Positions 1-3,561 of a stretch of DNA of 10,782 bases are shown here, in pieces. The notes below the pieces were generated by a model. That model saw nothing but the letters and a program-made list of their open reading frames with translations, was not told the DNA's origin and did no database searches. The stretch is from UHGV virus genome UHGV-0072853. One strand, given 5' to 3'. The position numbers and the translations under genes were made by a program. Source of the DNA: a virus. The first letter of the stretch is position 1, and each line of letters begins with the position of its first letter.

Positions 1-761
<761 letters not shown>

Positions 762-769
762 GACATTCC

Positions 770-801
770 CGCTCTTACACATCCCAGCCCTGAAAAAGGG
801 C
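770..801 (+). promoter_or_regulatory. nutR-like N-utilisation site (boxA CGCTCTTACAC, boxB GCCCTGAAAAAGGGC)
   Basis: boxA-like CGCTCTTA at 770..777. At 787..801 a 5-bp stem GCCCT/AGGGC around a GAAAA loop matches the lambda nutR boxB hairpin. It sits immediately downstream of cro as in lambda. Confidence 0.75.
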
Positions 802-827
802 ATTACCAGAAACAAATCTCTATGGTT

Positions 828-841
828 TTGCGTTTCTTTGC
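828..841 (-). promoter_or_regulatory. Candidate CII-binding direct repeat TTGC-N6-TTGC (PRE-like)
   Basis: TTGCgtttctTTGC lies 37 bp upstream of the cII ATG. This is the motif bound by lambda CII at PRE. Orientation and promoter activity are not determinable from sequence. Confidence 0.35.
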
Positions 842-877
842 GAAGCCAACTCTATCTAATCATTAAGGAAATTATCT

Positions 878-1159
878 ATGGGTACTATTGCAACTAAAAG
901 CAAGAAAGCGGCTCGCATCGAGTCAGCCTTGCTGAACAAACTGGCACTGATGGGGCAGAAGACATTCGCTCGAGCAATGGGGGTTCCTGAATATCAGGTA
1001 AGCCGATGGAAGAATGGTTTCTTCTCGCAGGTAAGCATGATGCTGGCTGTTCTGGAATACGGAATCGAAGACGATGAAATGGCTGAGCTGACTAAGCGGC
1101 TTGCCAATTACCTGACAAAAGAAAAAGCCCCGAAGAACGGCGAATTCTTCGAGGCCTGA
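878..1159 (+). CDS. cII: CII-like transcriptional activator (93 aa)
   Basis: AAGGA 9 nt upstream of the ATG. The protein contains RIESALLNKLALMG...SRWK...SMMLAVLEYGIEDDEMAEL, clearly similar to lambda CII (RIESALLNKIAMLG...SRWKRDW...SMLLAVLEWGVVDDDMARL), and is in the conserved position after cro/nutR. Confidence 0.85.
   Translation: MGTIATKSKKAARIESALLNKLALMGQKTFARAMGVPEYQVSRWKNGFFSQVSMMLAVLEYGIEDDEMAELTKRLANYLTKEKAPKNGEFFEA
1117..1154 (-). terminator. Intrinsic terminator on the minus strand (oop-like antisense RNA terminator)
   Basis: On the minus strand a 10-bp stem (CCTCGAAGAA / TTCTTCGGGG, one G-U pair) with a 7-nt loop is followed by CTTTTTCTTTTGT. It overlaps the 3' end of cII, as the lambda oop terminator does. 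Confidence 0.6.
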
Positions 1160-1193
1160 TGTAGAAAGACTGGATCAATCCACAGGAGTAATT

Positions 1194-1355
1194 ATGACAA
1201 AACGTCGTAAGAAATACCAGGAAAAAGAAGAGATTCGACACCCTGATTCACCTGAGGGATTAGTGGTAGCCGCAGCAAATAACAGGGCGTTCGCAGAGCG
1301 CCTTGTTGGTGTTTACAGACTAGCCAAAGCAGGAGTGAAACATGGGCGTCGTTAA
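1194..1355 (+). CDS. Small basic hypothetical protein (53 aa) between cII and the replication initiator
   Basis: ATG at 1194 with GGAG 7 nt upstream; own translation [53 protein letters not shown], stop TAA at 1353..1355. Below the ORF-track size cut-off. Positionally analogous to the small ORF between c1 and gene 18 in P22-like phages. Confidence 0.4.
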   Translation: MTKRRKKYQEKEEIRHPDSPEGLVVAAANNRAFAERLVGVYRLAKAGVKHGRR

Positions 1356-2163
1356 GTTAGCTGATTACAGGCCTCAACTGGAGGTCGTGGAGCATCGCGT
1401 GGCAGATACCGAAGATGGTTTCATGCGCGTTGCTAACGAGATTACCGACAGTCTGCTGATGGCTGATTTAACCGTCCGGCAGATGAAGGTGATGCTCGCT
1501 ATCATGCGCAAGACATACGGATTCAATAAGCCGATGGATCGACTCACAAACACGCAGATAGCAGCCATGACAGGTATTCATCACACTCATGTTTGCGCTG
1601 CCAAGCGCCAGCTTATTGAGCGTAAATTCCTCATTGCTGATGGCGTGAAAATCGGAGTGAACAAGGTGGTTTCTCAGTGGATTAGCCAGGACAGCTTAAC
1701 ATTAGCTAAAACAGCTAATAAAACATTAGCCAAGTCGGCTAATGGGTATAAGCCAAGTCAGCTAAACACAAAAGACAATATACAAAAGACAATAAATACA
1801 AATACCCCCTTACCCCCTAGCGGGGGCGGCGATGGGCAGGTTAAACCTGAACGTCGCAAGGCAGAACGAATCGACTACGAATCCTTCCTGAACGCCTACA
1901 ACACCGAAGTCGGTGACAGACTTCCACACGCTGTTGCGGTCAACGAGAAACGAAAACGCCGCCTGAAGAAAATCATTCCGCAACTGAAAACGCCAAACGT
2001 GGACGGTTTCAGAGCGTATGTCAGGGCGTTTGTGCATCAGGCCAAGCCGTTTTACTTCGGAGACAACGACACTGGCTGGACGGCAGATTTTGATTACCTG
2101 CTGAGGGAAGATTCGTTAACGGGAGTACGGGAAGGGAAGTTTGCAGACAGGGGGATTGCATGA
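1342..2163 (+). CDS. Replication initiator, lambda O-like N-terminal domain (273 aa)
   Basis: AGGAG 7 nt upstream of the ATG. The N-terminal region [37 protein letters not shown] resembles lambda O (DLTKRQFKVLLAILRKTYGWNKPMDRITDSQLSEIT). Iteron-like repeats lie inside the gene. The stop overlaps the helicase start (ATGA at 2160..2163). Confidence 0.8.
1681..1826. repeat. Putative origin of replication: four ~20-bp iteron-like direct repeats, an AT-rich tract and a C5/G5 hairpin inside the O-like gene
   Basis: Repeats ATTAGCCAGGACAGCTTAAC (1681..1700), ATTAGCTAAAACAGCTAATA (1701..1720), ATTAGCCAAGTCGGCTAAT (1725..1743) and TAAGCCAAGTCAGCTAAAC (1749..1767), then an A-rich tract (1768..1805), then CCCCCTAGCGGGGG (1807..1826). 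Same organisation as lambda ori within O. Confidence 0.65.
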
Positions 2164-3536
2164 GACAGGATATCGAAGCGAGCGTTATCGGTGGCTTGCT
2201 GATTGGTGGATTAACACCAACCGCCAGCGACGTTCTGGCAACGCTGGAGCCGGAAGCGTTTTCAATTCCGCTCTACCGGAAAGCCTTCGAGGTTATCCGC
2301 AAGCAGGCGAGAAACAGAAACCTAATCGACGCGCTGATGGTTGCCGAGGCGTGCGGAGAGGAGCATTTCACGTCAATCCTGATGACCAGCAAAAACTGCC
2401 CGAGTGCCGCAAACCTGAAGGGATATGCCGGAATGGTCGCGGATAACTATCACCGCCGTCTGGTGCTGGAAATCATGGATGAAATGCGTGAACCAATTCA
2501 GAGCGGAACCATCGACGCATCGAGTCAGGCGATGGATGAGCTTGTAAAGCGTCTTTCAGCCATCAGAAAGCCCCGTGACGAGGTTAAACCGGTACGGTTA
2601 GGGGAAATCATCACCGACTACACTGACACGCTTGACAGGCGTCTGAGGAACGGAGAAGAGTCAGATACCCTGAAGACCGGAATCGAAGAACTTGATGCCA
2701 TCACCGGAGGGATGAACGCGGAAGACCTGGTGATAATCGCTGCTCGTCCTGGTATGGGGAAAACCGAACTGGCTCTGAAGATTGCCGAAGGCGTTGCAAG
2801 CCGCGTTATTCCTGGTTCTGACGTCCGGCGCGGGGTATTGATTTTCTCAATGGAAATGAGCGCATTGCAGATTGCAGAGCGAAGCATCGCCAACGCCGGG
2901 AGGATGTCGGTTAGCGTGCTGCGAAATCCTGCATCGATGGATGACGAAGGCTGGGCGCGTGTTGCTAACGGCATGAGTCAGCTTGCAGATTTGGATGTAT
3001 GGGTAGTCGATGCCTCGCGGTTATCGGTCGAAGAAATACGCTCAATCGCAGAACGGCACAAACAGGAAAATCCAAACCTGTCACTCATCATGGCGGATTA
3101 TCTTGGCCTGATTGAGAAGCCGAAAGCAGACCGCAACGACCTCGCAATTGCTCACATCTCCGGAAGCCTGAAGGCGATGGCGAAAGACCTGAAAACGCCC
3201 GTTATCTCCCTGAGTCAGCTTTCGCGCGATGTTGAGAAGCGACCAAACAAACGCCCGACAAACGCAGATTTGCGTGATTCAGGAAGCATTGAACAGGACG
3301 CAGACTCAATCATCATGCTCTATCGGGAAGCTGTATATGACGAGAACAGTAGCGCCGCGCCATTTGCTGAAATCATTGTGACGAAAAACCGTTTTGGCTC
3401 ACTTGGTACGGTTTACCAGCGGTTCTGCAACGGACACTTTGTTGCATGTGACCAGGATGAAGCCAGACAGATTTGCACAACATCAAATGCACCTGCTGCA
3501 CGTGGCAGACGATATGCACAAGGGGCTGACGTATGA
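2160..3536 (+). CDS. DnaB-family replicative DNA helicase (458 aa)
   Basis: Walker A-like GMGKT ([18 protein letters not shown]) and DnaB-like C-terminal motifs ([41 protein letters not shown]). Length and position after the O-like gene match the P22 gene 18 / gene 12 arrangement. Confidence 0.85.
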
Positions 3537-3561
3537 CCATCTACATCACTGAGCTTGTAAC

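Follow-up and report, generated by a model that had tools for sequence, protein, structure and literature searches.

ORF53 between cII and the replication initiator

The window, by which we mean the whole stretch of DNA that was analysed, comprises 10,782 nt of the virus genome UHGV-0072853 and is an HK446/HK97-like phage segment (97% identical). Reading its plus strand from the ATG at 1194 to the stop ending at 1355 gave an open frame of 53 codons, which we designated ORF53. It lies between a cII-like activator gene (878..1159, plus strand, 93 aa; PF05269 Phage_CII, E 7.6e-30; phrog_191) and the gene for an O-like replication initiator (1342..2163, plus strand, 273 aa; PF04492, E 4e-33; phrog_345), and the latter is followed by a phage-encoded DnaB-type replicative helicase (2160..3536, plus strand, 458 aa; PF03796 and PF00772). 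The origin lies inside the initiator gene, with four 18-nt iterons at 1681-1765 and an AT-rich stretch next to them (~1766-1819, GC 0.33-0.38). A sequence-only reading of this DNA had placed a basic 53-aa ORF at 1194-1355, in a gap of about 180 bp where lambda has about 30 bp, and both statements held: the ORF53 peptide is basic (pI 10.7, 14 K+R in 53 residues), and the gap measures 182 nt in the window against 32 nt in lambda. The strong ribosome-binding site that it described is present as well, as the Shine-Dalgarno (SD) sequence AGGAG at 1184..1188 on the plus strand, and an SD also precedes the frame in divergent loci. The spacing of 7 nt given for it, however, has to be changed to 5 nt between GGAG and the ATG, which is a difference of counting.

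The 3' end of ORF53 runs into the initiator gene. As had been proposed, the two overlap by 14 nt (1342-1355) in different frames, and the shared nucleotides comprise the initiator start and its first four codons. The SD of the initiator, GGAG at 1332..1335 on the plus strand, sits inside ORF53 codons A46-G47-V48, 6 nt before the ATG at 1342. The junction GGRGTGAARNATGGSCGTCGYTAR accordingly contains the initiator SD, the ATG and, 11 nt later, the ORF53 stop, and it is conserved in 17 of the 18 displayed sequences, the start being offset in the remaining one (L098).

Bare sequence is weak evidence for a gene here, because about 3% of shuffles of 1160-1400 give an ORF of this length, and comparative data had to decide. 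The ORF53 peptide matched phrog_1331 over its entire length (E 1.4e-37, residues 1-53 on profile positions 1-53 of 53) and was 100% identical to HK97 gp53 (AAF31131.1). Its length, in a range of about 51-55 aa, and its position, immediately before a phage replication initiator whose start it overlaps, also fit the PHROG 1331 family. ORF53 is contained in 97 deposited phage records, including HK97 gp53, ST104 ORF27, ES18 gp58 and epsilon34 gp49, as well as in several Stx-converting phages such as Stx2-1717 (gp23), whose record note cites Sf6 gene 42 for the family. The full cassette was carried by 561 of 5426 complete E. coli genomes. On comparative grounds, ORF53 is a genuine protein-coding gene of the HK97 gp53/PHROG 1331 family. 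Phage records always annotate it as hypothetical or miss it altogether; it is left without annotation in IME10, 2851, YYZ-2008 and ENT47670, in line with the expectation that so small a coding gene is easily missed.

The gene is already known: its annotation goes back to the publication of the HK97 genome, the PHROG catalogue lists it as PHROG 1331, and its position has been described in the literature. The sequence-only reading was silent on this catalogue entry. A literature search on HK97 gp53, the peptide string and DUF2740 found no functional study of ORF53 and no evidence of its translation. What is added here is the selection analysis, the boundaries of the cassette, the initiator tag shared with it and the association with helicase-encoding modules.

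On the upstream side, the 3' end of cII is overlapped by a predicted oop-like antisense RNA of about 65-69 nt (~66) on the minus strand (1115..1183), recognised by homology to the lambda oop 5' end and by its terminator. The 5' end of the predicted RNA, G1183, was set by homology between GTGGATTGATCCAG in the window and GTTGATAGATCCAG in lambda, and the RNA would be antisense to cII over the final ~43 nt of that gene. The terminator scan placed a leftward intrinsic terminator inside the cII 3' end, with a 14-bp stem from 1157 to 1125 and a T-run to ~1115, and the ~66-nt RNA was predicted to fold with -27.2 kcal/mol (z = -5.1). An Rfam scan of positions 1-3000 returned no curated family matching the oop-like RNA. 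In alignment, a conserved block ACTGGATCAATCCACAGGAGTAATTATGACAAA at 1163..1200 is common to the window, lambda, P22 and HK97; within it lie the oop 5' end, the -10 element of the pO promoter and the SD/ATG pair at which the replication operon's first cistron begins, and past it the four sequences diverge. Partial matches in E. coli genomes were likewise confined to roughly the initial 42-44 nt of the query (1160-1203), a stretch that includes this block. The same 33-bp conserved sequence was quoted by Hayes et al. 2012 (PMC3349717), who described a 'cII-oop-orf-O-P' layout and, in a comparison that takes in HK97 and ES18, the orf of P22 that is naturally absent from lambda.

The predicted pO promoter (1191..1220, minus strand) has a -10 element identical in position to the lambda pO -10 'ATTATG' (PMC3349717): CATAAT at 1196->1191 is the complement of ATTATG and thus contains the complement of the ORF53 start codon. 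The minus strand reads TGT (an extended -10 at 1199->1197), CATAAT, 7 nt and then G, the predicted RNA 5' end, while a weak -35 candidate, CTGGTA, lies at 1220->1215 within ORF53 codons 8-9. A simple sigma-70 consensus scan did not call pO because this -35 is weak, and the assignment therefore rests on homology to lambda and P22 together with the extended -10. For P22, the deposited record likewise marks both a promoter and a terminator of oop at matching positions, and the promoter overlaps the start of orf48. By eye, a -10-like hexamer (CATAAT, TATAAT, TAGAAT or TAAAAT) abuts the start codon in most of the 18 displayed sequences. Locus L100, in which the upstream gene is not cII, is clearly without such a hexamer, and it is also the exception among the divergent loci, which otherwise keep leftward terminators analogous to that of the window. 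The idea that the 5' end of ORF53 overlaps the promoter of an oop-like RNA, so that coding and antisense-promoter functions would be overlaid there, is supported at the sequence level by this agreement with lambda, with P22 and with the published layout.

Conservation and purifying selection on the peptide

In a database of 5.8 billion proteins, the ORF53 family formed 68 protein clusters, all from Enterobacterales and mostly of 51-55 aa. A species-dereplicated genome scan yielded 17 loci with identity down to 57%, and the hosts of the divergent loci were Edwardsiella, Yokenella, Citrobacter, Chimaeribacter, Serratia, Rahnella and Brenneria. In all 17 divergent loci the ORF was intact, began with an ATG preceded by an SD and encoded 52-55 aa; frameshifts and stops, by which the sequence-only reading could have failed, were found in none of these relatives, from 57% identity upward. 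Indels in the family alignment were in-frame only, and six residues were invariant across Enterobacterales.

The copies on viral contigs were all 100% identical and of no use for dN/dS, so the species-dereplicated genome loci were used instead, and Nei-Gojobori dN/dS was calculated on a codon alignment of 16 sequences (the window and 15 loci). Across these sequences the median dN/dS of the ORF53 frame was 0.17, or 0.16 without the overlapping ends, against 1.3-3.8 in four control frames. The wobble-aligned (mirrored) antisense frame also gave a low value (0.21-0.24), but it is broken by stops in about half of the sequences. Stops in the ORF53 frame occurred in none of the 16, whereas all other frames were interrupted in most or all of them. 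Variability by codon position was 0.16/0.10/0.34, third positions varying most.

Along the gene, the segment-wise pN/pS was 0.17-0.35 in all internal segments, with bootstrap confidence intervals below 1, and synonymous sites varied throughout them (pS 0.53-0.73). Codons 20-29 and 39-50, which are free of overlapping elements, gave pN/pS of 0.26-0.35, and the ratio was distorted only in the first 4 codons, where pO overlaps, and in the last 5, where the initiator does. Judged from these substitution patterns, purifying selection clearly acts on the ORF53 peptide throughout its interior. The synonymous/nonsynonymous comparison that had been suggested as a check thus came out in favour of a real coding gene, and it is comparative conservation, not ORF size, that makes ORF53 more than a chance frame.

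In the AF2 model of the peptide, which is of moderate confidence (pLDDT 68), residues 1-20 form a highly charged, disordered N-terminal stretch, and two helices follow at 21-29 and 31-49. Homology of ORF53 to a characterised protein was sought in Pfam, NCBIfam, PADLOC, PDB folds and an exhaustive HMM search, and none was found: there was no Pfam family at E<=0.1, Lambda_CIII included, no NCBIfam match, no family among the PADLOC defence-system models and no PDB fold matching the model in Foldseek. The exhaustive profile search of 1.84 billion representatives returned 24 relatives, all of <=84 aa, and among them no fusions or informative remote homologues. Two specific candidates were also rejected, namely a diverged initiator N-terminus as in lambda O, by hhalign, and a relationship to P22 orf48, for which BLASTP and hhalign found nothing.

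A mosaic cassette at the initiator 5' end

The first ten codons of the initiator (1342..1371, plus strand) are conserved as protein and co-inherited with ORF53. Codons 5-10 vary synonymously, and the conservation of the first ten residues is therefore at the protein level. These residues, or close variants of them, are kept even where the remainder of the initiator belongs to another class. One class has 273 aa and a Phage_rep_O domain; the other has 296-300 aa and a DnaD-like N-terminal region, without the Phage_rep_O Pfam domain. Among the fetched viral loci, all of which encode the identical ORF53 peptide, about half carried the DnaD-like initiator (296 aa) and about half the O-like one (273 aa). 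The two classes diverge after codon 10, which sets a right mosaic joint at ~1372, and the window and L040 part in the same way. To the left, megablast breakpoints fell either at ~1037, within cII, or at 1203, just past the ORF53 ATG. Upstream partners of ORF53 included three cII types, YdaT-like proteins and a clamp-like protein, and these varied partners, together with the shared initiator 5' end, indicate that ORF53 travels with the initiator and not with cII. Comparison of the loci shows that ORF53 and the first 10 initiator codons behave as a mosaic cassette of ~200 bp.

In 93 of the 94 ORF53 loci with enough sequence, the initiator was followed by a DnaB-type helicase gene, and these helicases fell into two widely differing types; the count stands for few independent lineages (two dominant module types plus ~15 divergent loci). 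Stx2-1717 and ENT47670 fit this order of initiator and then helicase, and a lambda-P-type loader followed the initiator in none of the 94 loci. In a lambda-type E. coli prophage, the conserved block leads directly to O and then P, with no small ORF, and in a DUF2740-type prophage a toprim protein comes after the initiator. A link between ORF53 and replication is thus suggested by gene order and co-inheritance.

At the RNA level, RNAalifold predicted a conserved mRNA hairpin inside ORF53 (1281..1307, plus strand; codons N30-V38, including the invariant F-A-E-R), in whose core 1285-1292 pairs with 1296-1303 around a GCA loop. Of the cells scored for this pairing, 86% were paired, compared with 37-47% in slid controls, and the covariation score exceeded all 500 shuffles; even so, this is suggestive only of a real RNA element. 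No conserved structure masking the SD or ATG of the initiator was detected (z = -0.66), and obligatory translational coupling is therefore not supported. The arrangement expected of a coupled pair, with the downstream start and SD inside the upstream ORF and conserved in relatives, is nevertheless what ORF53 and the initiator display.

Possible role of ORF53 and comparison with known systems

Taken together, ORF53 is a real gene, which in HK97-type lambdoid phages probably opens the pR-driven block of replication genes and acts as an accessory of the replication module. The peptide (6 kDa, basic, with a charged tail and one long helix) would be made stoichiometrically with the initiator by way of the overlapping stop and start. 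Its binding partner may be, for example, nucleic acid, the helicase or the initiator, in the last case possibly by way of the conserved N-terminal tag, and the peptide would be a non-essential accessory of the module; lambda has no such gene and P22 an unrelated one, so ORF53 is not a general requirement of initiation. The predicted oop pairing ends one base before the ORF53 SD, for which reason oop-directed mRNA cleavage would strike ORF53 synthesis first, and initiator synthesis might be hit too through coupling. A more specific version, to which we give distinctly less credence, is that ORF53 serves as a dedicated small partner of helicase-encoding phage replication modules, recognising the co-inherited tag that otherwise unrelated initiators have in common, and controlling initiator stability or helicase recruitment at the origin. 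The tag resembles the N-terminal pattern of lambda O that ClpX reportedly recognises, said to have been described by Flynn and colleagues in 2003. If the tag is indeed read in this manner, the oop/pO block would, with ORF53 and the tag, make up a single regulatory 'front end' that can be moved between different initiators.

Other explanations were weighed against this replication-accessory reading. ORF53 could be a real gene unrelated to replication, a moron-like accessory for host takeover, exclusion or anti-defence that settled in a recombination-permissive junction. The cII-initiator slot is taken by either of two unrelated families of small genes, PHROG 1331 or DUF2740, and in lambda by neither, a pattern typical of accessory-gene hot spots, and the mosaic joints on both flanks and the small, lineage-restricted, orphan nature of ORF53 would suit such a history. 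Yet ORF53 has no promoter or terminator of its own, and it is locked to the initiator by the conserved 14-nt overlap and never apart from it in the loci examined; the lack of a PADLOC match speaks the same way, though these models describe defence and not anti-defence. We regard a moron-like gene of this kind as unlikely. In another reading, ORF53 would be a lysis-lysogeny regulator that acts with cII and oop, for example by shielding CII from FtsH as CIII does or by modulating oop action. It adjoins cII and overlaps pO, and its 53 residues and predicted helix recall lambda CIII, a protein of 54 aa. This regulatory role is nonetheless very improbable, as ORF53 travels with the initiator, the same peptide occurs beside three cII types as well as YdaT-like or clamp-like genes, L100 has ORF53 without any oop signals, and Lambda_CIII was among the Pfam families that gave no match.

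Two further readings leave the peptide out of account. ORF53 might act as a leader or adaptor bringing ribosomes to the initiator start, or as a mere spacer between pO and the origin: its start codon is the positional homologue of the lambda O start, the stop/start overlap is conserved, and the pO-ori distance is functionally critical in lambda (PMC3985674), to which ORF53 and P22 orf48 each add ~140-150 bp. The low pN/pS in every internal segment and the six invariant residues are difficult to reconcile with an irrelevant peptide, however, and the initiator has a good SD of its own that no conserved structure masks, which leaves this account with very little weight. Least probable of all, and scarcely credible, is that the conservation belongs to overlapping nucleic-acid elements and that the frame is open by accident. 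Three such elements do exist (pO, the hairpin and the initiator SD/start), the most conserved codons (R-A-F-A-E-R-L) coincide with the hairpin that shows some covariation, and the low dN/dS of the wobble-aligned antisense frame is as expected for a mirrored frame. Against this stand the three-base periodicity of substitutions with high pS, the low pN/pS of the element-free codons, the restriction to in-frame indels and the complete lack of stops in a frame whose alternatives are mostly interrupted. The selection pattern and the linkage to the initiator, both read from sequence comparison, leave the leader or spacer, the cII regulator and the nucleic-acid explanations disfavoured.

The locus has a wider bearing, since roughly a tenth of the complete E. 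coli genomes, and a number of Stx-converting phages, carry ORF53 at the junction of lysis-lysogeny control (cII/oop) and replication initiation. Its purifying selection, its fixed overlap with the initiator and a tag co-inherited across two initiator classes are the reasons for interest. If ORF53 modulates the level or stability of the initiator, prophage induction, and hence the replication of Shiga-toxin phages, would be affected.

Among known systems, HK97 is the closest. Its order of cII, gp53, O-like gp54 and DnaB-like gp55, with the 14-nt initiator overlap, is that of the window, and the gene in HK97, as in ST104, ES18, epsilon34, Stx2-1717 and, per the record note, Sf6, is ORF53 itself with nothing different. 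P22 has in the same slot orf48 (48 aa; PF10872 DUF2740, PHROG 1913), which uses the same conserved SD and ATG within the pO -10 and shares 8 nt at its 3' end with the beginning of initiator gene 18, compared with 14 nt for ORF53 and its initiator. The statement that P22-like phages hold a small ORF here was therefore right as to position, although orf48, which matches PF10872 at 2e-28, is unrelated in sequence to ORF53, which does not match DUF2740; some P22-like phages, such as ST104 (and Sf6 per the record note), carry the ORF53 family itself. The N-terminus of the P22 initiator also differs from that of the window. The RefSeq label 'tail protein' on P22 orf48 looks like an annotation artefact. 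Translationally coupled phage gene pairs share with the window a downstream ATG and SD embedded in the upstream 3' end; at 14 nt, the overlap of ORF53 and the initiator exceeds the classic ATGA or TAATG type, and the search for an inhibitory structure detected none.

With lambda, the window shares the 33-bp block, the oop 5' end, the -10 (ATTATG/CATAAT), the SD and ATG, the leftward terminator in cII and an antisense RNA, which is 77 nt in lambda and predicted at ~66 nt in the window, the difference being due to an 11-nt gap in the alignment. The lambda -35 region and everything rightward of it are unrelated to the window. In lambda the ATG of the block opens O itself, with no small ORF, whereas in the window and HK97 it opens ORF53. 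The description of ORF53 as 'inserted' is thus apt for the slot and needs refinement in wording: ORF53 uses the SD and ATG of lambda O, and the initiator start has been moved to the ORF53 3' end. The iterons of the window stand at a lambda-like distance from the initiator ATG, and its pO is ~148 bp further than lambda pO from the initiator gene and origin. In lambda, plasmid replication is crippled when as little as 6-10 bp is inserted between pO and ori (PMC3985674); with pO ~148 bp further away, any pO-ori cross-talk would therefore be set differently in these phages.

Annotation of the slot between cII and the initiator

The sequence-only reading had warned that ORF53 (1194-1355, + strand), which encodes a 53-aa basic protein, is easily missed, and this was borne out: homologues with 79-100% identity are left unannotated in JF974339 (IME10), FM180578 (2851), FJ184280 (YYZ-2008), NC_019927 (ENT47670) and several Stx-phage records. 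In P22, a 48-aa DUF2740 protein (orf48, 1850-1996 of the P22 locus) lies between c1/cII and the initiator; this protein, also found in mEp043 and Sf101 (matches H61-H64), is called 'tail protein' in RefSeq and PHROG (phrog_1913). Because the gene sits in the early replication operon, this label is almost certainly a propagated annotation error. Enterobacterial lambdoid prophage sequence was also found in two assemblies with non-enterobacterial labels, a 'Bacillota bacterium' MAG (L085, JAEZIN010000021; ORF53 100% identical) and 'Chryseobacterium sp.' (L088, CACSKA010000001; 83%), probably through contamination, mis-binning or mislabelling.

Upstream genes, oop signals and a hairpin within ORF53

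The gene upstream of ORF53 is not always cII. Some Enterobacter and Entomohabitans prophages carry at this position a gene for a 180-aa YdaT_toxin-domain protein (PF06254; phrog_163, 'CII-like'; 1871-2416 in L090 and 1870-2412 in L097), and both of these loci retain a leftward terminator-like hairpin between it and the ORF53 homologue. In Serratia fonticola (L100), cII is replaced by a gene for a clamp-like protein of 178 aa (1955-2665) with a weak DNA_pol3_beta_2 match, assigned to phrog_3007, which is labelled RusA-like. Neither a -10-like hexamer nor a leftward terminator was found at the ORF53 homologue of this locus, indicating that ORF53 can exist without the oop unit, the predicted leftward antisense RNA with its promoter pO. 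Near the 5' end of cII, the minus strand of the window (900-916) contains another hairpin, a weak one that resembles a terminator and has a T-run.

Within ORF53, an mRNA hairpin of 12-13 bp with a GCA loop was predicted on the + strand at 1281-1307 (core 1285-1292/1296-1303), coinciding exactly with the codons of the invariant R-A-F-A-E-R-L. In every pair, a third codon position is matched with a first or second one, and 86% of cells were paired at the hairpin versus 37-47% in slid controls. One pair occurs as G-C, C-G, G-U and U-G variants, and the G-U pairs indicate that the structure is specific to the + strand. The hairpin might be cut by RNase III, be bound by a protein or cause a pause.

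Two initiator classes with a common N-terminus

Eight loci (L040, L048, L080, L086, L088, L091, L093 and L101) encode an alternative initiator of 296-300 aa, at about 2649-3550 in each, which lacks the Phage_rep_O Pfam domain. The DnaB-type helicase that follows is a different one, at about 31% identity. Although DnaD-like in its N-terminal part (phrog_2514/186), this initiator is grouped with the O-like proteins in phrog_345. The N-terminal decapeptide is common to the alternative and window initiators; the C-terminal part is probably also common, and nothing else is shared. These first ten residues (1342-1371 and equivalents in L040 and L086-L097) show protein-level conservation spanning two otherwise unrelated initiator classes, always with ORF53 alongside. 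Once the Met is removed, G-V-V-K-L of the decapeptide fits polar-phi-phi-basic-phi, reportedly the pattern by which ClpX recognises the N-terminus of lambda O (Flynn et al. 2003).

Origin-like structure and comparison with lambda

Inside the O-like gene, an origin-like structure (1681-1819) consists of four 18-nt iterons of the ATTAGCCAAGTCGGCTAA type, spaced 20-24 nt apart, and, 3' of them, an AT-rich stretch (GC about 0.33) containing two 14-nt ACAAAAGACAATA repeats. As in lambda, about 339 bp separate the start of the iterons from the ATG of the initiator; since this distance is lambda-like, pO lies about 148 bp further from ori in the window than in lambda.
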